A program made the translations under genes and the position numbers. A DNA stretch of 39,092 bases from a phage. A model generated the notes under the pieces. That model saw nothing but the letters and a program-made list of their open reading frames with translations, had not been told where the DNA came from and did not search any database. The DNA lies in sequence record PZ452614.1. One strand, given 5' to 3'. Shown here piece after piece: positions 1-38,486 of the stretch (positions within the stretch are counted from its first letter, which is position 1; each line of letters begins with the position of its first letter).

Positions 1-962
1 AGACGTTTGCGGTACATACCGACAGTTATATGAAACACGTCATCCTGGCTGAAAGTACCCGCGCAATGAAGCAGGCAGTGATCGACCGTGACATACTTCC
101 GGTTCTTGGCAACAAAATGATGGCTGAAATTACCACATCGATGGTTCGTGATTTGTGTGACAGGATTGTCGAACGCGGTGGTCGGGCAACAGCAGTGCAG
201 GCCAGGGAGATCATCAGCAGCGTATACCGTCACGCCAATGACCGTGGTCATGGTTTGTTTAATCCTGCGGCTGACATTAAACCTTCGTCTATCGCCATAT
301 TTAAACCACGAGAGCGAACACTGACACCAGAAGAAATTGGCCTGTTCTTCCGCACGCTGGATGCCATTGGTGCTATGGGCACTATGAAAATGGCTTTAAA
401 GCTGGTGCTTATCACTATGGTTCGTAAAGGCGAATTCACCAACGCAACGTGGGATGAAATAGATTTTAAAAAATGGACATGGACAATTCCTTCAGACCGC
501 ATGAAGGGAAGCCGGGCGCACGTTATTTACCTGCCTAAACAGGCTCAGGATATATTGGTCGGGTTGCAGATGTGCGCTGGTGGAAGTGAATATCTGGTTC
601 CTGGTCGTTACAATTTCCGGAAGCCATTATCTAATGCCGCGCTGAACTCTCTGATCGACAGAACGGTGAAAATAATAAATGAAGATGGTGAGCATATTCA
701 GGGCTTCACCGTACACGATATGCGCCGTACAGCCAGTACGTTGTTGCATGAGGCTGGTTATCCTTCAGACTGGATTGAAAAGGCTCTGGCACATGAGCAG
801 AAAGGTGTGCGCGCCGTATATAACAAAGCGGAATACGCCAGACAGCGCGCCTACATGTTGCAGCAGTGGTCCGATATGATTGATTCCTGGATTAACGGGG
901 AGCATACGGATCTGATTCCGTTCTCCCCGTCGAAGTTTGAGAAGTGGATGGCGGGGGAATAA
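1..962 (+). CDS. int: Tyrosine integrase, P4/IntA-type, C-terminal part; continues in frame from 38804..39092 across the window junction
   Basis: No stop between position 3 and the ATG at 30; C-terminal catalytic region resembles P4-family integrases (…HDMRRTASTLLHEAGY…ALAHE…VRAVYNKAEY); frame matches the truncated ORF at the window end. Confidence 0.9.
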   Translation, partial: TFAVHTDSYMKHVILAESTRAMKQAVIDRDILPVLGNKMMAEITTSMVRDLCDRIVERGGRATAVQAREIISSVYRHANDRGHGLFNPAADIKPSSIAIFKPRERTLTPEEIGLFFRTLDAIGAMGTMKMALKLVLITMVRKGEFTNATWDEIDFKKWTWTIPSDRMKGSRAHVIYLPKQAQDILVGLQMCAGGSEYLVPGRYNFRKPLSNAALNSLIDRTVKIINEDGEHIQGFTVHDMRRTASTLLHEAGYPSDWIEKALAHEQKGVRAVYNKAEYARQRAYMLQQWSDMIDSWINGEHTDLIPFSPSKFEKWMAGE

Positions 963-20335: not shown

Positions 20336-20940
20336 TGGCCTCTGTAGTAGAGATCTGTAATCGTGCGCTGTCCAATATTGGCAACAGCCGCAGCATTAAC
20401 AGCCTGACGGAAGCCAGCAAGGAAGCGGGGGAATGTTCGCTGCACTTTGAGGCCTGTCGTGATGCTGTGCTTTCTGATTTTGACTGGAACTTTGCTACCA
20501 AACGCGTGGCGCTTGCAGATACGAGCAATCCACCGCCTGACTGGGAATATGCGTACCAGTACCCGTCAGATTGTCTGCGCATTACTGAAATTATGCTTCC
20601 TGGTGTACGCAATCCAACAGCAGCAATGCGCGTTCAGTACGAAGTTGGTGCAGACACCAACGGAACAGGAAAGTTGATCTACACAGACCAGCCTCAGGCA
20701 TGGCTCAAGTATGTCTCTCGCGTTACAGATGTGAACATGTTTGATGCCATTTTTATGGAGGCGTTGGCCTGGCGTCTTGCGGCAGCTATTAACATGGCGC
20801 TGACTGGGAATGCAGACCTCGGTACGTTTGCCCTCAATATGTACAATCGCGTGATTCTTAGTGCTGGCTCGCATAGCCAGAATGAATCACAGGAACCACA
20901 GCCACCGGTTGATGAGTTTACCATTGCGAGGTTGTCCTGA
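20335..20940 (+). CDS. Putative head-tail adaptor / tail protein (201 aa)
   Basis: Position between head genes and the large tail protein; GGAGGTGA upstream. Confidence 0.45.
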   Translation: MASVVEICNRALSNIGNSRSINSLTEASKEAGECSLHFEACRDAVLSDFDWNFATKRVALADTSNPPPDWEYAYQYPSDCLRITEIMLPGVRNPTAAMRVQYEVGADTNGTGKLIYTDQPQAWLKYVSRVTDVNMFDAIFMEALAWRLAAAINMALTGNADLGTFALNMYNRVILSAGSHSQNESQEPQPPVDEFTIARLS

Positions 20941-23411
20941 TGGCTATCAGTTGGATCCAGCCCAGCTTTGCCGGTGGTGAGATTGGACCGTCGTTGTACG
21001 GGCGTATTGACATGGCGAAGTACCAGGTAGCATTGCGCAAGTGCGATAACTTTATCGTGCGGCAGTATGGCGGCGTTGAGAATCGACCTGGTACGCGTTT
21101 TGTCGGTGCCGCCAAATACCCAAATCGGAAATGCCGCCTGATCCCGTTCCAATTCTCGACGGTTCAGACTTATGCTCTGGAGTTCGGACACCAGTACATG
21201 CGCGTTATCAAAGATGGTGCGTTGGTGCTGAACAGCAGCAATGTTATTTATGAAATTGCCACGCCATATACTGAAGCCGATCTGTTCCGAATTAAATTCA
21301 CGCAAAGCGCCGACGTGCTTACGCTGGTTCACCCGGCATACCCGCCGAAAGAGCTGCGCCGCTATGCGCATGACAACTGGCAACTGGTTGATGTGGTAAC
21401 GAAGAACGGGCCATTTGAAGATATCAATATTGATGAGTCATTGACGGTTTATGCCAGCGCCAGCACCGGGACAATTACGTTAACGGCAAGCGCCTCTATT
21501 TTTGGCGCGGAGCAGGTAGGCAAATTGTTCTATCTGGAACAGCCTGCAGTGGATTCTGTGCCGGTATGGGAAACCAGTAAGAGTACGTCGATTGGCGATA
21601 TTCGCCGTGCAGACAGTAACTACTATCGCGCCGTTACAGCAGGCAAAACAGGCACTTTGCGCCCTTCGCATACAGAAGGCACATCATGGGATGGCTGGGG
21701 CGGATCCGGTGATGATGATACTGGCATTGAGTGGGAGTATCTGCACAGTGGTTTTGGCATTGCCCGTATAACTGCTGTAAATGGCACTACTGCAACTGCT
21801 GAGGTGATTTCCTATATCCCTTCGCAGGTCGTTGGCGAGGATAATGCCAGCTATAAATGGGCTAAATATGCCTGGAACAGTGTTAACGGTTATCCTGGCA
21901 CGGTTGTTTATTATCAACAACGTCTTTACTTCGCCGCATCGACAGCGTTCCCTCAGACTATCTGGGCCAGCCGTACTGGGGATTATAAGGATTTTGGCAA
22001 AAGCAATCCTACGCAGGATGACGACAGAATTATCTACACCTATGCCGGGCGTCAGGTTAATGAGATCCGCCACCTGATTGATGTCGGTTCGCTGGTGGCA
22101 CTGACTTCCGGAGGTGAGTACGTCATCACCGGCGACCAGAACAAAGTGTTAACCCCATCATCATTTGCATTCAGCTCTCAGGGATCAAATGGCTCAAGCA
22201 ACGTCCCACCAATTGCCGTGGCGAATATTGCTCTGTTCGTCCAGGAGAAAGGCAGTGTTGTCCGTGATCTGGCCTACTCATTCGATGTTGACGGCTATCA
22301 GGGGAACGACCTGACCATCCTTGCCAATCATCTTTTTCAGAAGCACAGCATTGTTGACTGGTGCTTCTCTATTGTCCCTTACTCCAGCGCCTTCTGCATT
22401 CGTGATGACGGTAAATTACTGGTGATGACCTATTTGCGTGATCAGCAGGTTTTTGCATGGGCACCACAATCCAGTACCGGAAAATATGAAAGCACATGCA
22501 GTATCAGCGAAGGAAATGAAGATGCGGTGTATTTCGTCGTTAACCGAACCGTTAACGGGCAAACAGTGAGATACATCGAGCGACTGTCCAGCCGTTTATT
22601 TACCAGCGATGAAGATGCTTTCTTTGTTGATTCTGGCCTTAGCTATGATGGAAGAAACACGTCTGACAGAACGATGACCATCACTGGTGGTTCTGGCGAA
22701 TGGGATTACCTCGCGGAATATACAATCAGTGTTTCTGGTGGTGCGTACTTCACCAGTAGTGATGTTGGTGCGCAACTACAGTTCCCTTATACCGGAGCTG
22801 ATCCTGATACTGGCTATGAAGTGTCAAAAGAATTACGTTGCGACATTATTTCTGTAACCAGCAATACCGCAGTAGTGGTTCGTGCTAACAGGAACGTCCC
22901 GCCATCCCTCAGGAATGTGGCCACCACGAACTGGCAGATGGCGCGCCGGACATTTGGCGGCTTGTCTCATCTTGAAGGCCAGACCGTAAACATCCTCTCT
23001 GATGCGAACGTGGAACCACAAAAAGTGGTTTCCGGAGGTGCCGTCACGCTGGAATCACCGGGGGCTGTTGTGCACATCGGCCTGCCAATAACTGCTGAAT
23101 TCGAAACACTGGATATCAACATTAACGGACAGGAAACGCTGCTGGACAAAAAACAGGTGATCCCGTCCGTTACTCTGGTTGTGAATGCCAGTCGCGGAAT
23201 CTGGGCGACTACGCCCGGCGGTAAATGGTACGAATATCCACAGCGTGAATTCGAGTTCTACGATGATCCTGTTGATGATGCTACCGGAAAAGTAGAAGTG
23301 AAACTGGACAGTAACTGGGGCAAAAACGGGCGTGTAAAAATCCGTCAGCTTGACCCGTTGCCGCTGTCTGTTCTTGCCGTTATTCCTCGCCTTACTGTTG
23401 GGGGATTCTGA
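20940..23411 (+). CDS. Large tail protein (823 aa; podovirus tail tube/nozzle-like)
   Basis: Size and position; ATGA coupling. Confidence 0.55.
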   Translation: MAISWIQPSFAGGEIGPSLYGRIDMAKYQVALRKCDNFIVRQYGGVENRPGTRFVGAAKYPNRKCRLIPFQFSTVQTYALEFGHQYMRVIKDGALVLNSSNVIYEIATPYTEADLFRIKFTQSADVLTLVHPAYPPKELRRYAHDNWQLVDVVTKNGPFEDINIDESLTVYASASTGTITLTASASIFGAEQVGKLFYLEQPAVDSVPVWETSKSTSIGDIRRADSNYYRAVTAGKTGTLRPSHTEGTSWDGWGGSGDDDTGIEWEYLHSGFGIARITAVNGTTATAEVISYIPSQVVGEDNASYKWAKYAWNSVNGYPGTVVYYQQRLYFAASTAFPQTIWASRTGDYKDFGKSNPTQDDDRIIYTYAGRQVNEIRHLIDVGSLVALTSGGEYVITGDQNKVLTPSSFAFSSQGSNGSSNVPPIAVANIALFVQEKGSVVRDLAYSFDVDGYQGNDLTILANHLFQKHSIVDWCFSIVPYSSAFCIRDDGKLLVMTYLRDQQVFAWAPQSSTGKYESTCSISEGNEDAVYFVVNRTVNGQTVRYIERLSSRLFTSDEDAFFVDSGLSYDGRNTSDRTMTITGGSGEWDYLAEYTISVSGGAYFTSSDVGAQLQFPYTGADPDTGYEVSKELRCDIISVTSNTAVVVRANRNVPPSLRNVATTNWQMARRTFGGLSHLEGQTVNILSDANVEPQKVVSGGAVTLESPGAVVHIGLPITAEFETLDININGQETLLDKKQVIPSVTLVVNASRGIWATTPGGKWYEYPQREFEFYDDPVDDATGKVEVKLDSNWGKNGRVKIRQLDPLPLSVLAVIPRLTVGGF

Positions 23412-23875
23412 TGATCTATGTTCAAATTATTCCCGCTACCGAAGAGCATCTTCAGATGATTTTGCCGGATGTTCGTCAGGCTGATATTGACGAACTGTAT
23501 GCGGTATCGCTGATGACTACCGAAGATGCGCTGCGCGTTGGTCTTCGCACTGCGACTATGGCCTGGTCAGGGTTCGCGAACGGAGAACTGGTAACCATGT
23601 TTGGTGTATCTCCGGCGTCAATGATCGGTGGCAATGGTACGCCCTGGCTGGTAGGAACCAGCCGTATTGAAAAATATCAGAAGACATTTCTGCGCCACTG
23701 CCGCCCTGTATTGCAGCAGATGCTGGCAGTTTATCCGCGCCTGGAAAACTACGTCGACGAGCGAAACCATGTTGCCAAAGCATGGCTGCACTGGCTTGGA
23801 TTCAGGCTTGAAGAAGCCGCGCCTTATGGTGCTCTTGGTCTTAATTTCCACAGATTTCACATGGAGAGAAAATAA
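23411..23875 (+). CDS. Hypothetical virion-associated protein (154 aa)
   Basis: ATGA-coupled; no confident family. Confidence 0.45.
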   Translation: MIYVQIIPATEEHLQMILPDVRQADIDELYAVSLMTTEDALRVGLRTATMAWSGFANGELVTMFGVSPASMIGGNGTPWLVGTSRIEKYQKTFLRHCRPVLQQMLAVYPRLENYVDERNHVAKAWLHWLGFRLEEAAPYGALGLNFHRFHMERK

Positions 23876-24420
23876 TGTGCGATCCGGTTATTGCTGGTGG
23901 CGCAATGCTCGCCATGAGTGGCATTCAGGCATACACCCAGTATCAACAGGGAAAGTATGCCTCGAAGGTTGCAGAAGCGAACGCAGATATAGCCACAGCT
24001 CAGGCAAATGATGCAATAAACAGAGGTAACGCTGAAGCTGAGCAACGACGCAGAGAGACCCGACAGCGGCTTGGTACACAGGCGGCGACAATGGGGGCTA
24101 CCGGCGCTGATTTATCTACAGGTAACGCGCTGGATATATTTGGCGACACTGCCCAGTTTGGCGCTCTTGATTCGCTGACGACGGTGAATAACGCGCAACG
24201 CGAGGCTTACGGTTATCAGGTCCAGGCTGCCAACTATAAAGCAGAAGCCAGTTCAGCCCGTAAACAGGGGAATGTGGGAGCAGCAACAACATTGCTCACT
24301 GCGCCTCTGAAGGCATACGGTGCGTACCAGATGTTTGGTGGGACGTGGAGTCCGTTTACTCAAAGCACTCCTGCGCCAATCGGGGCAGCAGCAGGAACCA
24401 GATTACCCGGAGGATTATAA
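23875..24420 (+). CDS. Putative internal virion protein (181 aa)
   Basis: Ala/Gln-rich; Shine-Dalgarno GGAGAG; position in the ejection-protein block. Confidence 0.5.
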   Translation: MCDPVIAGGAMLAMSGIQAYTQYQQGKYASKVAEANADIATAQANDAINRGNAEAEQRRRETRQRLGTQAATMGATGADLSTGNALDIFGDTAQFGALDSLTTVNNAQREAYGYQVQAANYKAEASSARKQGNVGAATTLLTAPLKAYGAYQMFGGTWSPFTQSTPAPIGAAAGTRLPGGL

Positions 24421-26933
24421 TGCCAGTCGTACCAACAGTATCCGGACGTCAGGTTGAGAGTCGTGGAGTTCAGTCAGCAGGCTTGCAGACGTTTTCTCAG
24501 CAAGGTATTGGTGATGCTTTTGTTCGGGCAGGGACAGAGGCAATTGATGTTTTGGGGCAGGCAAAACAGCGTGCCAATATCGCTCTGGCTCAGGAAGCAT
24601 CTCTTAACCTCAGTCAGATAAGCAGCGATCTGCTGAATAATCCTGAAACAGGATTGCTTAACCTGAAAGGGAAAAATGCTATTGGAAAAGGCCATGAGTA
24701 TACGCAGCAGTTTGATGCTCAGGTCGAACAACTGGCTATGTCGCTGCCGGATGAACAGGCTCGTAATGCTTTCATGCAGCAGGCGCAGCAGCAGCGCATT
24801 CAGTTCACTACGCAGGCCGGGCGACACGAGATAGGGCAAATTAATGCCTACGAAGAAGGCCAGTTTCAGGCGACACTGCTGAACAATGGTAAAAATGCCG
24901 CAGCATTGTATGGCGACAACGCCGCATACGTATTGGCTAACAAGCAAACTTTCCAGCAAATTGAGGAGTACGGTGTTGCACGTGGCTGGAGCAACGAGCA
25001 AATCCAGGCCAAGAAAATCGAGTTTAAAGAGAAGGTTGCTGATGCTGCATTGTCCCAGTGGTCGGCAAACAATGCGACCGCATTCATCCAAAGTAATGGC
25101 GAGTTAAGTGATACTGCTGCTGGAGCTCGCCGTGCTGTAGCAGATAGTGACTCTTCCGAGCGTGCCCGTGGCATACGCAACAATAACCCAGGAAATCTCG
25201 AATACAGCAAAACTAATCCGTGGGTAGGCCAGACCGGTGATGATGGTCGATTTGCTAAATTCGAAACACCTGAACACGGGATTCGTGCATTAGGGCGGAA
25301 CCTGATGTCGTATCAGAGGCAGGGTATTGATACCGTCAGCGAGATAATTAATCGCTGGGCACCGCCTGCTGATAAAAATGACACTATGTCGTATATCAAA
25401 GCAGTGTGCGAACAACTTGGCGTTTCTGCTGATGAGCCTCTCGATGCATCTAATCCTGATACCCTGAAGGCGCTTTGTGCAGCCATTATCCATCATGAGA
25501 ACGGTAGCCAGCCATACAGTGATCAGCAGTTAACTGCTGGTGTCAGTGCAGCACTTGGTTTATCAACAATTCCAACCAACACCAAACGCTATACCGGTAA
25601 TGCAGCATTCGATGCGGCATCTCCTGAGGCGCAGGCAAGTTTTATGCGACAGGCGGATCAACTGCGTCGGCAGCAGCAGGCTGAATATAAAACGATGATT
25701 GACAGCCAGGTTCGCGATGCGACAGCTGCGTATATGCGTGGCGTTGAATTTCCTAACCCACCTGGTGAGGCTGATTTTATTGCAGCTTATGGAGTAAGAG
25801 AAGGAAACCTGCGATATACCGAGTTCAGAAATACGCAAATCGCCGGACAGTATATAGGCTCTTTCCGCAACATGCCGACAAGCAGCATTACAGCATATGT
25901 TGAGCAATTACGCCCGGATACTGGTGAGACAGGGGAGGGTTATGCGGCACGAGCCGCTCTTTATGACAACGTTGTGTCGGCTGCAAGTCAGGTGATAAAG
26001 CAGCGACAGGCTGATCCTGTACAGTTCTCTCTTGCCGCCGGACAGGCAAAGCCTATCGACATGAGCAATAAGGATAACTTTGGACAGAGCGTTGCCTTGC
26101 GTGCTGCTCAGGTCAGTGACCTTGCTAAGTCATATGGCACTCCACTGACGTTCTTTTCCAAAGACGAGGCCAATCAGATCGGTGTTTTCTTTCGTGATGC
26201 GCCCGTTTCCCAACAGGCAGCATATCTCGATACCATCAGGCAGAGCACTGGTGGTGGGCAGGTGTATATGTCAGCACTACAGCAGATCAGTGCCAACGCT
26301 CCATCTGCTGCCGTTGCCGGGATACTGATGGATAAGCCAGGTGGTATTTTGGCAGAAAAAAACTGGTTTAATCCGGATGTTTCCGTGTCTCCAGAAACCG
26401 CTGCGCAGACAATTCTTGCTGGCGCGGCGGCTCGTAAAGGTACTGATGACGCGAAAGGTATTCCGATGCCTAAAGATGCTGATCTTCGCCTTGAGTTTTC
26501 TGACATGGTGAAGGATGCATTTGCTGGTGATGCTCAGGGGGCATCAATGGCATACGAGATCGCAAAGGACTATTACGCTGGTGTGATGGCGAAAAAAGGC
26601 GTGGTATCAGGCGAAATTGACAATGATATCTGGAAACAGGCTGTTAACGTAGCTACAGGTGGCGTGCATGACTATAACGGAATGGGGAATGTTCTTTTGC
26701 CGTGGGGAATGTCTGCAGAGCAATTCGATAAGCAGGTTAATCAGGCTTGGAATGAACAAGTTGTTGGCACAGGGATAAAAACACCGCCTGGTCAGTATGG
26801 TTTGCAAAGTTACGGCGATAGTCAGTACCTGGTGAAACTTGGTACTGGTTATCTGCTAAAAGATGATGGTTCTCCCGTTGTTCTTGATCTGACACAGAAG
26901 CGTCAGAGATTCTCCGGAGATATTCCGCAATGA
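24420..26933 (+). CDS. Internal virion / ejection protein (837 aa)
   Basis: ATG at 24420 after GGAGGA; large Ala/Gln-rich protein with a conserved-looking RGIRNNNPGN segment. Confidence 0.6.
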   Translation: MPVVPTVSGRQVESRGVQSAGLQTFSQQGIGDAFVRAGTEAIDVLGQAKQRANIALAQEASLNLSQISSDLLNNPETGLLNLKGKNAIGKGHEYTQQFDAQVEQLAMSLPDEQARNAFMQQAQQQRIQFTTQAGRHEIGQINAYEEGQFQATLLNNGKNAAALYGDNAAYVLANKQTFQQIEEYGVARGWSNEQIQAKKIEFKEKVADAALSQWSANNATAFIQSNGELSDTAAGARRAVADSDSSERARGIRNNNPGNLEYSKTNPWVGQTGDDGRFAKFETPEHGIRALGRNLMSYQRQGIDTVSEIINRWAPPADKNDTMSYIKAVCEQLGVSADEPLDASNPDTLKALCAAIIHHENGSQPYSDQQLTAGVSAALGLSTIPTNTKRYTGNAAFDAASPEAQASFMRQADQLRRQQQAEYKTMIDSQVRDATAAYMRGVEFPNPPGEADFIAAYGVREGNLRYTEFRNTQIAGQYIGSFRNMPTSSITAYVEQLRPDTGETGEGYAARAALYDNVVSAASQVIKQRQADPVQFSLAAGQAKPIDMSNKDNFGQSVALRAAQVSDLAKSYGTPLTFFSKDEANQIGVFFRDAPVSQQAAYLDTIRQSTGGGQVYMSALQQISANAPSAAVAGILMDKPGGILAEKNWFNPDVSVSPETAAQTILAGAAARKGTDDAKGIPMPKDADLRLEFSDMVKDAFAGDAQGASMAYEIAKDYYAGVMAKKGVVSGEIDNDIWKQAVNVATGGVHDYNGMGNVLLPWGMSAEQFDKQVNQAWNEQVVGTGIKTPPGQYGLQSYGDSQYLVKLGTGYLLKDDGSPVVLDLTQKRQRFSGDIPQ

Positions 26934-28737: not shown

Positions 28738-31212
28738 ATGAGACAGGAATGTATACAAGCGGTCCAGCAGGCGGCGCAGCGCACGTTAACAGCGCGAGAA
28801 ATACAGAACATTGAAGACCGCATTTATCGAAATATGCGCTCCATTGCTCGTGATGACCCGATGTCGTGGAGACAACTTTCCGAATCAGAGCGGCTATATC
28901 GTGCAGCACAATTGGCATCTGAAGAATTACAGCGAGAAGCGGCATTAAAGAAACGTCGTGTGGCCCTCACTATAGCCGCACGTCAGAGATTGGATAAATT
29001 TATCAATAGCTATCAAGGGGCTGATGGGAAACTTGGCGCTCTTAACCGTACTATTGCTTTTAATGCAGACGGTAAATCGAATTTCCTCTCTGTTGAGTCC
29101 AGAACAAAAGCCACTCGTGATTATGCATTGAGTCAATTGCAAGAGGCATTTGAAGCAGTTGATCCTCGCTTTTTTGGCCTGTTTGAAGATGAAGCTGGCG
29201 TGCGTGACCTGGTATATGAAATGCGAGGGCAAAATACTGGCAATGCTAAAGCAAGAAAAGGTGCTAAGGCGTGGAGAGAAGTGACAGATCTACTGCGCCG
29301 CCGGTTTAATGATGCTGGTGGGGACATTGGCTATCTCGAAAACTGGGGGATCCCTCAACATCATTCTATGGAAAAGGTTGGGGCGGTATCAAAGGATAAG
29401 TGGGTTAGCGATGTTATAGGTAAGCTGGATCGCAAATATTATATCCGAGCCGATGGACAACTGATGAACGATGCCGAGTTGTCTGCATTTCTTGGAGAGG
29501 CTTATAACACGATCGCTACTGGTGGGCTGAATAAGCTTACTGATACCGGAATGCGAATTTCCGGCGCACGTGCTAACCGTGGTAATGCATCACGACAGAT
29601 ACATTTCAAAGATGCAGATTCCTATCTGCAATATCAGCAACTTTATGGCGATCGCTCTCTATGGGAAATCATGGTCGGTCACTTGGAAGGTATCAGTAAA
29701 GATATTGCACTGGTGGAAACATATGGCCCAAACCCCGATCATGTTTTCCGCTCTCTTCTTGATCAGGTGAAGGCAGAAACGGCAACAGCTAACCCGAGTA
29801 AAACCGGTAAAGTCGAGCGGCTGGCGAACAACACAGAGAATCTGTACAACTTTATTTCCGGAAAGACACAGCCTGTAGCGAATCCGCACATCTCGCGATG
29901 GTCTGACAATATCCGCAACTGGCTGGTTGCCAGCAGACTCGGATCCGCGTTGCTGTCATCGTTCTCTGATCTTGGAACCATGTATCTGTCTGCGAAGGTT
30001 ACCAACCTTCCAATGAACCAGTTATTCCGCAACCAGCTTGAAGCTATGGACCCAACGAACCGTACAGAACTTGCGCGGGCGCGCCGCGCTGGTCTGGCGA
30101 TGGAATCTCTACTTGGCAGCGTTAACCGCTGGGCGATGGATAATATGGGGCCGTCAGTGTCTCGTTGGGCGGCAACGGCGGTAATGCGTGCCAGTGGGCT
30201 TACAGCATGGTCAGATGCGCACAAGCGCGCCTATGGCGTAACCATGATGGGAAGCCTGGGAGAAGTAGTGTCACGGACACCAGACCTTCGTAGCCTCGAT
30301 GATTCTGATTTTCGTATCCTGAAAAGCAAAGGGATTACTGACACAGACTGGAGCGTATGGAAGTTGGCGCAACAGGAGGACTGGGGGAACGGTAATAATA
30401 CGATGCTGACACCGGAAAGCATTATGCGTATCCCTGATTCAGCAGTTAAACATCTTGGTGAGCCTGAACGCGTGAAGTTTGAGGCAATGCGTAAACTGCT
30501 CGGTGCCGTAACTGAAGAAGTTGATATGGCTGTTATTACACCGGGAGCACGTGAGCAACTGATAACCGGTTCTGGTATTCAGCGTGGAACATGGAAAGGT
30601 GAATTAACGAGAAGTGTTTTCCTGTTTAAATCGTTCCCTATCTCGGTTGTTATGCGTCACTGGTCACGCGCTATGGGTATACCGTCTGCTGGTGGGCGTG
30701 CGGCATATATTGCGACGTTTATTGCCAGTACGACCATTCTTGGCGCTTTGTCGCAGCAACTTAACGACCTTGCGTCTGGTCGTAATCCTCGAGAGATGAC
30801 AGGAGGAGATGCCGCAAAATTCTGGCTTGGTGCTCTACTGAAAGGTGGTGGTCTTGGCCTTTACGGTGACTTTTTATTGTCAGATCACACTAGGTACGGA
30901 AGCGGCGCGCTGGCGTCGATGCTTGGCCCGGTAGCTGGTCTGGTTGATGACGTAGTGAAGATTGCTCAGGGCATACCGTTAAATGCTGTGGAAGGGAAGA
31001 ATGAGCAGACTGGTGGTGATCTGGTTAAGCTGGGGAAAGGTCTGATGCCAGGTGCGAATCTCTGGTACTTAAAGGCGGCTCTCGATCACATGATCTTTAA
31101 CCAGATGCAGGAGTATTTTTCACCAGGTTATTTGCGTAAAATGGAGCAACGTTCGAAGAAAGAGTTTAACCAGACATACTGGTGGCGACCACAGGATGTC
31201 ACTCCGCAATAA
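28738..31212 (+). CDS. Internal virion / ejection protein (824 aa)
   Basis: Size and position; Shine-Dalgarno GAGAGG. Confidence 0.55.
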   Translation: MRQECIQAVQQAAQRTLTAREIQNIEDRIYRNMRSIARDDPMSWRQLSESERLYRAAQLASEELQREAALKKRRVALTIAARQRLDKFINSYQGADGKLGALNRTIAFNADGKSNFLSVESRTKATRDYALSQLQEAFEAVDPRFFGLFEDEAGVRDLVYEMRGQNTGNAKARKGAKAWREVTDLLRRRFNDAGGDIGYLENWGIPQHHSMEKVGAVSKDKWVSDVIGKLDRKYYIRADGQLMNDAELSAFLGEAYNTIATGGLNKLTDTGMRISGARANRGNASRQIHFKDADSYLQYQQLYGDRSLWEIMVGHLEGISKDIALVETYGPNPDHVFRSLLDQVKAETATANPSKTGKVERLANNTENLYNFISGKTQPVANPHISRWSDNIRNWLVASRLGSALLSSFSDLGTMYLSAKVTNLPMNQLFRNQLEAMDPTNRTELARARRAGLAMESLLGSVNRWAMDNMGPSVSRWAATAVMRASGLTAWSDAHKRAYGVTMMGSLGEVVSRTPDLRSLDDSDFRILKSKGITDTDWSVWKLAQQEDWGNGNNTMLTPESIMRIPDSAVKHLGEPERVKFEAMRKLLGAVTEEVDMAVITPGAREQLITGSGIQRGTWKGELTRSVFLFKSFPISVVMRHWSRAMGIPSAGGRAAYIATFIASTTILGALSQQLNDLASGRNPREMTGGDAAKFWLGALLKGGGLGLYGDFLLSDHTRYGSGALASMLGPVAGLVDDVVKIAQGIPLNAVEGKNEQTGGDLVKLGKGLMPGANLWYLKAALDHMIFNQMQEYFSPGYLRKMEQRSKKEFNQTYWWRPQDVTPQ

Positions 31213-36688: not shown

Positions 36689-37093
36689 ATGTCAGCAGGG
36701 CTAACCAGTGAGTCATTAAATCAGTGGCTTAGCATGGGGTCTCTTGCTGCAGTAATTGCAGGTGTTCCGCCAGAAGTTGCGCTTGGTGCTCTGGCTGGTG
36801 CGGTAATCTTTGTTACCTCGGCAGTTGAGTATCCAATCCGTCGCCGCGTGCTCCTGTCGTTGCTCAGCTTCCTCTGCGGCCTTCTCTTCTACAAACCCAC
36901 AGCGTCGATCCTTATCGGCTTTGCCAGCCTGATCCCTACCATCACTCAGGACTCTTTCGAGAAAGGGATCGTCTTCTCTGCTGGCGCATTCGTGTCAGCA
37001 ATAGTCGCAGTGCGCATTGGCATCTGGCTCTATCACCGTTCTGACAATCCACGCGAGTTAATTCCGGGGAGAAAAGACGATGACAACTCATGA
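36689..37093 (+). CDS. Holin (putative)
   Basis: Hydrophobic segments; ATG at 36689 after GGTGG; first gene of the lysis cassette. Confidence 0.6.
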   Translation: MSAGLTSESLNQWLSMGSLAAVIAGVPPEVALGALAGAVIFVTSAVEYPIRRRVLLSLLSFLCGLLFYKPTASILIGFASLIPTITQDSFEKGIVFSAGAFVSAIVAVRIGIWLYHRSDNPRELIPGRKDDDNS

Positions 37094-37388
37094 GCTGCTT
37101 TTGCTTATTGCTAATGCGGTTATCTGTTCATGTATAGCGATCCGCGTCGGTACGTTCCGGCGTAACGGTTCACAACATCGCAGATGGGGAGGGTGGATCG
37201 CTTACTTCCTCATTGTGGCCGCTGCCAGCATCCCGGTACGTGCCGCGTACGCTTTCTGGTACCACACGCCAATGACCGACGATCTTTCGGAGGTTGTCAT
37301 CAACGCTGTCATGCTTGCCGCCGTTCTGAAAACCCGCGGTAACGTCGTGCAGATTTTCAAAATAACGAGGTCTCAACATGGAGATTAA
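37080..37388 (+). CDS. Second holin-like membrane protein
   Basis: 102 aa with two or three hydrophobic segments; overlaps the holin stop. Confidence 0.5.
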   Translation: MTTHELLLLIANAVICSCIAIRVGTFRRNGSQHRRWGGWIAYFLIVAAASIPVRAAYAFWYHTPMTDDLSEVVINAVMLAAVLKTRGNVVQIFKITRSQHGD

Positions 37389-38007
37389 ACAATTCCAGCG
37401 AGCTGCTGGTATTAGCGAGGCGCTGGCCGCACGCTGGTTCTCGCATATAACTTCTGCGATGAAAGAGTTTGGTATCAGCAAAGCTGAAGATCAGGCAATG
37501 TTTATTGCTCAGGTCGGGCATGAGTCTGGTGGTTTCATCCGGTTGCAGGAGAATTTCAACTACAGTGTCACCGGACTGGCTAACTTCGTTCGGGCTGGGC
37601 GTCTCGCTCAGGGACAGGCCAACGCATTGGGTCGCCGCGCAGGCGAACCTCCATTGCCACTCGAGCGCCAGAGAGCGATCGCCAATCTGGTGTACAGCAA
37701 ACGCATGGGTAACAATGCTCCCGGCGATGGCTGGAATTACCGTGGGCGCGGGCTTATCCAGATTACCGGTTTGAATAACTATCGTGATTGCGGAAACGGT
37801 CTGAAGGTTGACCTGCTGGAGAGCCCTGAATTGCTGGCGCATGACGAATATGCGGCTCGTAGCGCAGCGTGGTTCTTTGCCAGCAAAGGATGCATGAAGT
37901 ATACCGGCGATATTGCACGTGTAACTCTGATTATCAATGGTGGCCGGAACGGCATCGACGACCGGCGCGCGCGGTACATCACTGCCAGTAAGGTGCTGGC
38001 GGTATGA
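37378..38007 (+). CDS. Endolysin, glycoside hydrolase family 19
   Basis: …FIAQVGHESGGF… and …NYRGRGLIQITG… GH19 motifs. Confidence 0.88.
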   Translation: MEIKQFQRAAGISEALAARWFSHITSAMKEFGISKAEDQAMFIAQVGHESGGFIRLQENFNYSVTGLANFVRAGRLAQGQANALGRRAGEPPLPLERQRAIANLVYSKRMGNNAPGDGWNYRGRGLIQITGLNNYRDCGNGLKVDLLESPELLAHDEYAARSAAWFFASKGCMKYTGDIARVTLIINGGRNGIDDRRARYITASKVLAV

Positions 38008-38486
38008 TCTGGGCATTCGCAAAAGCATACTGGAAACAGTTAATTATCGTGGTGATGCTTGCTGTTCTGGTCATATCCGGAATTGTTGCTTGGAATGTGC
38101 ACGGTAGCCGTCAGTACGACGCCGGGTATGTGCAGGCGAAGGAAGAGCGCAAAGCCGAAGATGAGAAAGTTCGTCAGCACTACGAACAGGAGAAAGCGAT
38201 CAATGAACGTGAAGCGCAGCAGAGGATCGACCAGGCGCGCAATGATGCTCTTGATGCTGCCGCTCGCGCTGGCCGGTTGCAGAAACAGCTCGTTGCCATC
38301 CGTGAGCAGCTCAGGCAGTATAACGCCATTGTCGGCGCTGGGACGTCAGCCGCAGACACCGGAGTTTTGCTTGCCGACGTGCTCAGCAAATCTCTCGAGA
38401 GAAACAGACAACTGGCAGAGTATGCTGACCGGGCAGCCGAAGCCGGAAGAGTCTGCGAAAAACAGTATGACACCCTGACAAGATAG
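38004..38486 (+). CDS. i-spanin (Rz-like)
   Basis: N-terminal membrane helix, coiled-coil periplasmic domain; follows the endolysin. Confidence 0.65.
   Translation: MIWAFAKAYWKQLIIVVMLAVLVISGIVAWNVHGSRQYDAGYVQAKEERKAEDEKVRQHYEQEKAINEREAQQRIDQARNDALDAAARAGRLQKQLVAIREQLRQYNAIVGAGTSAADTGVLLADVLSKSLERNRQLAEYADRAAEAGRVCEKQYDTLTR
38242..38478 (+). CDS. o-spanin (Rz1-like) embedded in the +1 frame of the i-spanin gene
   Basis: MMLLMLPLALAGC lipobox signal; Pro/Ser-rich mature part. Confidence 0.6.
   Translation: MMLLMLPLALAGCRNSSLPSVSSSGSITPLSALGRQPQTPEFCLPTCSANLSRETDNWQSMLTGQPKPEESAKNSMTP

Follow-up and report, generated by a model that had tools for sequence, protein, structure and literature searches.

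Does the long structural protein encoded downstream of the tail genes in this podophage carry an enzyme that cuts the host cell wall, and at which stage of infection would such an enzyme act? The window, by which we mean the whole stretch of 39,092 nucleotides that was analysed (PZ452614.1), comes from Escherichia phage phiV10, an epsilon15-like podophage with which it is 100% identical. The gene in question, PhiV10p18 (gp18), is 100% identical to positions 12543-15056 of NC_007804.2, and RefSeq labels its product a "head protein". Its ATG start codon is preceded by GGAGG and shares one base with the stop codon of the gene before it. The original prediction pointed to two motifs in the translated product, RGIRNNNPGN and HGIRALGRNL, and tentatively linked this conserved-looking segment to enzymatic, possibly cell-wall-degrading, domains carried by podophage ejection proteins. 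Both motifs were found in the 837-residue ORF exactly as stated. The interval given for the segment, 25150-25510, does include them, but it begins out of the reading frame of the ORF, so that translating it directly gives no sensible product, and the domain extends slightly past its end.

A Pfam scan of gp18 returned no family at E<=1 and an NCBIfam scan no matching model, and the family assignment therefore draws on PDB sequences, PHROGs and published work. In phmmer searches of PDB chains, the closest solved sequence was 9VVP, in which residues 3-146 of Gp29 (9vvp_L) align with gp18 aa 249-398 (E=5.5e-38). [quoted passage not shown] The family phrog_992 covers gp18 over its full length, and PHROG families labelled 'endolysin' and 'tail injection transglycosylase' match the region of the domain, for which the HMM envelope spans aa 249-380 and ends at nucleotide 25559. 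When whole gp18 was searched against 1.84 billion representative proteins, 12,683 relatives were found at E<=1e-3, and a tblastn search whose query was the domain of PDB 9VVP, a close relative, matched 747 phage records. A word-indexed full-protein search gave only near-identical E. coli prophage alleles, so the deep alignment was built from a search of representatives at 50% identity.

The isolated domain was modelled by AlphaFold with a pLDDT of 86.7 and a pTM of 0.79. When this model was compared to the PDB using Foldseek, 7q47 was the sole significant match (E=9e-11, TM 0.70-0.74) and nothing beyond it fell below E=1; no GH23, GH73 or GH19 structure was found at a significant level. The predicted structure is compact and helical, similar to the alpha-lobe of lysozyme. 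It contains a short beta-hairpin (aa 271-281), whereas the Enc34 report describes the corresponding loop without beta structure. By sequence and predicted fold, gp18 aa ~246-380 is a domain of the PHA02564 family, to which the Enc34 endolysin and PM2 P5 belong.

Across 195 distinct homologues, R253, N254, N255, N256, P257, G258 and N259 are each kept in at least 180, and NNNPGN is nearly invariant. The Trp/Tyr/Glu signature of Enc34-type domains is present in gp18 as W313, Y325 and E360. Position 313 is aromatic in 188 of the 195 homologues (Trp in 172, Tyr in 14 and Phe in 2), whilst Tyr is found at position 325 in 185, and Glu at position 360 in all, of the 189 that are ungapped there. In Enc34, the equivalent Trp79, Tyr95 and Glu131 were proposed as the catalytic signature (PMC8943055); in the consulted part of that report, their role is derived from structural superposition and no mutagenesis is reported. 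Together with the PDB matches and the relatives given above, the near-invariance of NNNPGN bears out the conservation that the original prediction suspected, which goes far beyond chance, and sequence comparison and structure prediction indicated an Enc34-type muralytic family and a 7Q47-like fold.

Table 1. Features of gp18 and of neighbouring genes in the window (positions in nucleotides of the window).
Feature	Positions	Strand	Basis or remark
PhiV10p15, 823 aa, tail protein	20940..23411	+	phrog_376 'tail protein'; public annotation
PhiV10p16, 154 aa, internal virion protein	23411..23875	+	phrog_308; public annotation
PhiV10p17, 181 aa, T7 gp14-like internal virion protein	23875..24420	+	PF24072, phrog_418
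PhiV10p18 (gp18), 837 aa	24420..26933	+	probable ejection/internal virion protein, central predicted muralytic domain
N-terminal module, aa 1-239	24420..25136	+	full-length AlphaFold model
Flexible linker	25137..25154	+	pLDDT <50 over aa 232-245
Predicted Enc34/PM2-P5-type (PHA02564) peptidoglycan-degrading domain, aa 246-380	25155..25559	+	sequence, AlphaFold, HMM
RGIRNNNPGN, aa 250-259	25167..25196	+	N-terminal signature of the family
HGIRALGRNL, aa 286-295	25275-25304	+	gp18 translation
W313 codon	25356..25358	+	Enc34 Trp79, aromatic residue positioning substrate; alignment and codon check
Y325 codon	25392..25394	+	Enc34 Tyr95; alignment and codon check
HHENG, aa 358-362	25491-25505	+	contains E360
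E360 codon	25497..25499	+	Enc34 Glu131, proposed catalytic; alignment and codon check
C-terminal module, aa 395-837, mostly helical	25602..26930	+	full-length model, relatives
PhiV10p19, 600 aa	26930..28732	+	downstream operon partner; 4-nt ATGA overlap
PhiV10p20, 824 aa, virion structural protein	28738..31212	+	phrog_684; public annotation

In the full-length AlphaFold model of gp18 (pLDDT 86.1), aa 1-41 are predicted to be disordered and aa 37-226 form a bundle of long helices. The protein is without a signal sequence. By hydropathy it has no transmembrane segment either, and a membrane-anchored or SAR-endolysin-like mechanism was excluded for this reason. At the site of the linker, the SPN1S allele and a 935-aa E. 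coli prophage allele carry an insertion of ~100 residues; this insert of the SPN1S-type allele had no Pfam match and only a weak match to a PHROG of unknown function. The orthologue in Salmonella phage epsilon15, gp15 (NP_848223, 842 aa, 'putative lytic transglycosylase'), has the same architecture. The two proteins are 76-84% identical over aa 1-532, with 84% in the domain, whereas aa 533-837 are only 23% identical. This low identity of the C-terminal third points to mosaic exchange, with a breakpoint near aa 533 in the C-terminal module.

The domain itself is exchanged among relatives. It was found, by its NNPGN motif, in 50 of 112 full-length relatives and is absent in the other 62. Scanning 55 of those without it revealed Pfam SLT in 25 and GH108 in 15, and in 10 relatives that were checked individually, including P0249, the SLT or GH108 domain lies within aa 233-368. 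In two SLT-bearing relatives (P0249 and P0252), homology to gp18 is detectable in the modules on both sides, the N-terminal module of gp18 corresponding to aa 52-234 of P0249, while in most other SLT or GH108 relatives the C-terminal module alone is detectably homologous to gp18. The BFVD entries related in structure carry the names GH108, SLT, tail lysozyme and NlpC/P60.

Which bond would the phiV10 domain cut? The catalytic domain of Enc34 ORF39 lyses E. coli, P. aeruginosa and H. alvei with permeabilised outer membranes (PMC8943055). M4Lys of Salmonella phage BSPM4 degrades purified peptidoglycan with a loss of GlcNAc as seen by HPLC-MS, and the data suggested glucosaminidase plus endopeptidase activity (PMC7143992). 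For gp18, cleavage of the GlcNAc-beta-1,4-MurNAc bond seems most likely, which would make the domain an N-acetylglucosaminidase. The alternative that survives best keeps the domain and its role as described, but replaces this hydrolytic chemistry by that of a lytic transglycosylase, yielding 1,6-anhydro-MurNAc. Public annotations of these domains do read lytic transglycosylase: the Kayfunavirus homologues carry the label 'peptidoglycan lytic exotransglycosylase', and that of epsilon15 gp15 comes with an HHpred remark pointing to SltB 4ANR. GH23 lytic transglycosylases typically have one catalytic Glu and no evident second carboxylate, SLT domains fill the slot of the gp18 domain in relatives, and the Enc34 report describes a distant, circularly permuted resemblance to the GH23 enzymes phiKZ gp144 and MltC. 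However, a GH73 glucosaminidase is reported as the nearest structural relative of Enc34, and GlcNAc removal is seen in the M4Lys muropeptides. Moreover, Pfam SLT (PF01464) does not match gp18, whereas true SLT relatives score 47-67 bits in the same slot, and Foldseek gave no significant GH23 structure. As GH73 and GH19 structures were not significant either, the "SLT" label of public annotation was not adopted for gp18. We consider transglycosylase chemistry unlikely, if still worth keeping in view.

The genes around gp18 bear on where the enzyme would be used. Tail proteins p14 and p15 are followed by the internal virion proteins p16 and p17 and then by gp18, p19 and p20, and around gp18 the start and stop codons of adjacent genes overlap. 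The gene p17, immediately upstream of gp18 and translationally coupled to it, matches Pfam PF24072 T7_gp14 with 31.2 bits (cut-off 27) and belongs to phrog_418 'internal virion protein'. Downstream, p19 has one hydrophobic segment (aa 260-278), and p20, an orthologue of epsilon15 gp17, is in the position of gp16 in T7. HHpred relates epsilon15 gp11 to T7 tail tubular protein A, and p15 probably has the nozzle role of T7 gp12, because it follows the gene whose epsilon15 counterpart is gp11. The protein of T7 at the same gene position as gp18, after a gp14-like gene, is gp15, which forms the periplasmic tunnel (7K5C, 6YT5). Both are long helical proteins, but T7 gp15 is without an enzyme domain. 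In the Foldseek search with the full-length model, the next PDB matches were T7 gp15 (7k5c_A with probability 0.98 and E=2e-3, and 6yt5_A; probability 0.95-0.98), a weak likeness with TM 0.15-0.19 and, for 7k5c_A, an rmsd of 27 A. The profile search of PDB sequences matched neither T7 gp15 nor gp16, its other matches being spurious apolipoprotein helices, and we therefore do not claim membership of the T7 gp15 family at the sequence level.

A different location has been proposed for the epsilon15 orthologue. As cited in reviews, older epsilon15 work (Guichard 2013, Jiang 2006) places gp17 in the internal core and gp15 in the tail hub or central tube; earlier work, again as cited, assigns gp15 to the virion packaging/injection apparatus. 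If gp18 were such an external hub or tube component and not an ejected internal core protein, its enzyme would act from the tail tip. We regard this as rather improbable, as the hub is already accounted for by p14 and p15, the T7 gp11-like and gp12-like adaptor and nozzle genes, while gp18 is encoded directly after a T7 gp14-like gene and its fold weakly resembles that of gp15.

Muralytic modules on ejection proteins, as proposed here for gp18, are known from T7 gp16 (an N-terminal SLT) and from the gp15-position proteins of phiKMV (gp36), K1E (gp35) and SP6, where they likewise breach peptidoglycan at entry; these differ from gp18 in catalytic fold (GH23 SLT or lysozyme) and in domain position. 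The same domain as in gp18 is found on a podophage ejection protein of Kayfunavirus, a T7-like coliphage: tblastn identified Gp29 (9VVP, 1295 aa) as its 'internal virion protein D / with endolysin domain', which is of the gp16 type. There it is N-terminal on the gp16-position protein, whereas in phiV10 it is central on the gp15-position protein, and the remaining parts of Gp29 and gp18 share no sequence similarity. No papers citing PDB entry 9VVP were found. The gp29 proteins of phiXacm4-11 (an adaptor) and cyanophage A4 (380 aa) were considered for Gp29, and neither was the right protein. In the Pseudoalteromonas corticovirus PM2, P5 belongs to the same family, a link already made in the phiV10 GenBank record, and a published model of P5 on 7Q47 shows the W/Y/E signature as well. 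Unlike gp18, P5 is small and stands alone, and its virus has a membrane but no tail.

Could the domain be catalytically inert, and serve to bind peptidoglycan or as a purely structural module? Ejection proteins can work without a muralytic domain, as those of P22-like phages do. In gp18, however, the invariant Glu and the nearly invariant Trp/Tyr and NNNPGN among the 195 homologues, and the preservation of the domain between phiV10 and epsilon15 compared to the C-terminal third, make an inert module very unlikely. Enc34 ORF39 (from a Hafnia phage) and M4Lys share RNNNPGN and Trp/Tyr/Glu with gp18 and are lysis-cassette enzymes of ~26 kDa with a C-terminal transmembrane domain. That the gp18 domain is likewise a second endolysin, acting from within at lysis or during assembly and not at entry, as these stand-alone members and the 'endolysin' labels of related PHROG families might suggest, is the least credible reading, since the domain sits mid-chain in a structural-operon protein with neither signal sequence nor transmembrane segment, a complete cassette of holin, GH19 endolysin and Rz spanin lies elsewhere in the phage (37080..38486), and the same domain forms the N-terminus of an internal virion protein of the gp16 type, whose structure comes from a cryo-EM entry derived from virions.

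Taken as a whole, gp18 is probably a virion-borne ejection protein whose Enc34/P5-type glycosidase domain cuts peptidoglycan at entry. The operon, the separate lysis cassette and the muralytic slot of the relatives support a role at this stage, and they agree with the family, the predicted fold and the Trp/Tyr/Glu residues in supporting what had been guessed, namely a cell-wall-degrading domain on a podophage ejection protein. We infer that gp18 is packaged in the virion and ejected, that its domain is active with the bond specificity suggested above, and that the protein takes part in forming a tunnel. The helical modules (aa 1-239 and aa 395-837) would serve as scaffold and probably help to build the trans-periplasmic conduit, and the glycosidase domain of ~135 residues would be held between them, joined by the disordered linker. 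After adsorption and ejection into the periplasm, the domain would cut the glycan strands of the host peptidoglycan locally, making an opening through which the ejection channel and the DNA could pass. In this reaction E360 may act as the general acid, with the sugar held in position by W313 and Y325.

The predicted muralytic domain in gp18 is an ordinary feature that has for the most part been annotated before, and it leaves the understanding of podophage entry unchanged. For PhiV10p18, the annotation "head protein" can be corrected to ejection protein with an Enc34/P5-type muralytic domain, and E360, W313 and Y325 are named as targets for mutation. In a broader and more tentative reading, which we consider possible rather than probable, the protein in the T7 gp15 position of Uetakevirus (epsilon15-like phages) is a periplasmic-tunnel protein with a hot-swappable muralytic slot, filled by an Enc34/P5-type, SLT or GH108 domain according to lineage, and the phiV10/epsilon15 version is a hydrolytic N-acetylglucosaminidase and not, as annotations assume, a lytic transglycosylase. 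If true, this would add an enzyme chemistry absent from the ejectosome literature examined and correct the assignment of the epsilon15 ejection proteins in a recent review. A single scaffold junction that accepts at least three unrelated muralytic folds may be useful for engineering phage entry modules, and the exchange in this slot for mining lysin domains active against Gram-negative bacteria.

The segment from nt 24420 to 26933 is 100% identical (megablast) to positions 12543-15056 of NC_007804.2, the genome of Escherichia phage phiV10, an epsilon15-like phage of the genus Uetakevirus. Relative to that record the window is circularly permuted, position 1 of the record falling at window position 11878, and it is 12 nt shorter (39092 versus 39104 nt). 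The segment encodes gp18. A GGAGG stands ahead of its ATG, which overlaps the preceding gene's stop codon, and the gp18 stop codon in turn overlaps the next start codon (ATGA). No hydrophobic segment was found in gp18. The motifs that the original prediction quoted from the 837-aa product were all found exactly in the translation. The interval 25150-25510 given for them holds for the motifs, but its start is out of frame and its end falls about 50 nt short of the domain's end.

Features of gp18 and of its genomic surroundings
Feature	Residues of gp18	Window position	Strand	Description
gp18 (PhiV10p18)		24420..26933	+	ORF, 837 aa
Disordered N-terminus	1-41			AlphaFold
Helical module	37-226			AlphaFold
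Disordered linker	232-245			AlphaFold
Insert site	240-248	about 25137-25163		linker
RGIRNNNPGN	250-259	25167-25196	+	translation
HGIRALGRNL	286-295		+	translation
HHENG	358-362		+	translation
Large C-terminal module				AlphaFold; mostly helical, follows enzyme domain
PhiV10p16		23411-23875		internal virion protein, phrog_308
PhiV10p17		23875-24420		internal virion protein; Pfam T7_gp14 (PF24072), 31.2 bits, cut-off 27
Lysis cassette, apart from gp18		37080..38486		holin, GH19 endolysin, Rz spanin
Holin				Phage_holin_3_7 (Pfam)
Endolysin, GH19-type				PF00182, 36 bits
Rz spanin				DUF2514

Pfam and NCBIfam scans of gp18 returned no matching model. In PHROGs, the whole protein was assigned to phrog_992, and its central part matched families labelled "endolysin" and "tail injection transglycosylase". 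Among PDB sequences, aa 249-398 matched chain L of 9VVP ("Gp29", 1295 aa; E=5.5e-38) and the Enc34 phage endolysin's catalytic domain, 7Q47 (E=2.8e-17). The structure prediction suggested in the original prediction, an AlphaFold model of aa 240-405 built on a 68-sequence alignment (pLDDT 86.7, pTM 0.79), gave 7Q47 as the only significant Foldseek match in the PDB (E=9e-11, TM 0.70-0.73, 35% identity), with the next structure at E>1. The Enc34 domain family is reported as PHA02564 (PMC8943055). PM2 protein P5, whose similarity is already noted in the public phiV10 record, has been modelled onto 7Q47 with a matching residue signature. The precise family of the gp18 domain is Enc34/P5-type, not SLT. 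The epsilon15 orthologue gp15 (842 aa), 84% identical in the domain, is labelled "putative lytic transglycosylase" in GenBank; its RefSeq entry also carries an HHpred note pointing to SltB.

The Enc34 domain reportedly lyses Gram-negative cells with a permeabilised outer membrane, and superposing it on enzymes of GH73 and GH23 led its authors to propose Glu131, Trp79 and Tyr95 as the catalytic signature (PMC8943055). These residues align with E360, W313 and Y325 of gp18. Among 195 distinct homologues gathered in this analysis, the glutamate was kept in 189/189 ungapped sequences and the tyrosine in 185/189, the tryptophan position held Trp in 172 sequences and Tyr in another 14, and the NNNPGN residues were essentially invariant. 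We propose E360, W313 and Y325 as putative catalytic residues, their roles in the family resting on superposition. The related M4Lys, from Salmonella phage BSPM4, degraded purified peptidoglycan with loss of GlcNAc (PMC7143992); the Enc34 authors conclude that members of the family are N-acetylglucosaminidases (PMC8943055), a specificity that is still tentative. PDB sequence matches, predicted fold, residues and context all agree with an enzymatic, possibly cell-wall-degrading domain, as originally suggested. The observation is confirmed, and its interpretation as a predicted peptidoglycan-degrading domain is supported.

An exhaustive HMMER search returned 12,683 relatives of gp18 at E<=1e-3, including 323 at E<=1e-30. 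Among the matches listed of at least 700 aa, the NNPGN domain was present in 50/112, beginning between aa 242 and 386 in all but one, and missing in 62/112. A Pfam scan of 55 of these 62 found an SLT domain in 25, GH108 in 15, a Transglycosylase-like domain in one and no Pfam match in 14. In ten individually checked relatives the replacement domains sat between aa 233 and 368. Both flanks were homologous to the gp18 N- and C-terminal modules in the SLT-bearing homologues P0249 and P0252 (in P0249, aa 52-234 correspond to gp18 aa 51-233, and aa 374-822 to gp18 aa 394-837); in most others only C-terminal homology was detectable. BFVD structural relatives of whole gp18 were named GH108, SLT, tail lysozyme, LT_GEWL and NlpC/P60. 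Because unrelated muralytic folds occupy the same junction, slot exchange provides independent evidence that the segment's job would be to degrade peptidoglycan. Among homologues outside the window (P0014-P0036, P0040-P0120), the P5-type domain also occurs in abundant stand-alone proteins of ~140 aa from metagenomes and in ~280-aa proteins of Leclercia genomes, and it is reported as the N-terminal part of the Stenotrophomonas type VI secretion effector Tae5.

Identity between gp18 and epsilon15 gp15 was 76% over aa 1-239, 84% over aa 246-380 and 80% over aa 381-532, falling to 23% over aa 533-837, where SPN1S was 90% identical to gp18. These identities indicate that the gene contains a mosaic breakpoint close to aa 533 (about nt 26016). 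SPN1S gp17 (937 aa, L003:4501-7314) differs by an insert of ~100 aa exactly in the linker before the muralytic domain; an E. coli prophage allele of 935 aa that is very common (P0131) likewise carries ~100 aa in the disordered linker. The SPN1S-type insert (...GNINLFNRPSVKNEDGTISTVRTISIG...LIPTVSDDGK...) had no Pfam match and weakly matched phrog_19413, a PHROGs family of unknown function.

The operon order is p14, p15, p16, p17, gp18, p19, p20. Both p14 and p15 are tail proteins, and gp11 of epsilon15, which corresponds to p14, has an HHpred match to tail tubular protein A of T7; p20 is the orthologue of epsilon15 gp17. Since p17 scores above the Pfam gathering threshold, it provides a sequence-level anchor between Uetakevirus and T7 ejection operons. 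In the epsilon15 record, the p16 orthologue gp13 has an HHpred note pointing to a GNAT acetyltransferase, so p16/gp13 might add another enzyme to the ejection proteins. The original prediction associated the motif with enzymatic domains of ejection proteins, correctly so, since tblastn showed that the 9VVP Gp29 N-terminal domain, present in 747 phage records, opens the gp16-type "internal virion protein D / with endolysin domain" of Kayfunavirus coliphages, which are T7-like. A role of the gp18 domain at entry rather than at lysis is supported. Earlier epsilon15 work is cited for the presence of gp15 in virions, and older work, as cited in reviews, assigned gp15 to the tail hub or tube, and the core to gp17. 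The ejection-protein review PMC8954989 describes the transglycosylase as absent from P22-like phages and groups the gp14/gp16-like proteins of Epsilon 15 with them; its Table 1 lists gp11 (229 aa), gp12 (499 aa) and gp13 (708 aa) as gp14-, gp15- and gp16-like. The listed sizes disagree with the epsilon15 record (L004; gp11, a 201-aa tail protein; gp12, 825 aa; gp13, 154 aa) and resemble those in a P22-like phage.

In the full-length AlphaFold model of gp18 (pLDDT 86.1, pTM 0.56), the best match after 7Q47 was 7k5c_A (E=2e-3, probability 0.98), which is T7 gp15 in the periplasmic tunnel of the ejectosome, and T7 gp15 in the gp15-gp16 core complex (6yt5_A) was also matched, with TM of only 0.15-0.19 for these structures. 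A profile search with gp18 found no similarity to T7 gp15 in PDB sequences. A kinship of gp18 with T7 gp15 is plausible rather than established.

T7 gp16-N, phiKMV gp36 and K1E gp35 are textbook cases of a muralytic module borne by a podophage ejection protein; the gp18 domain is therefore a feature of a known kind, in a phage already sequenced and annotated. This analysis adds the precise family (Enc34/P5-type, not SLT), a mapping of the residues, the evidence from slot exchange and the gp14-like and gp15-like synteny.
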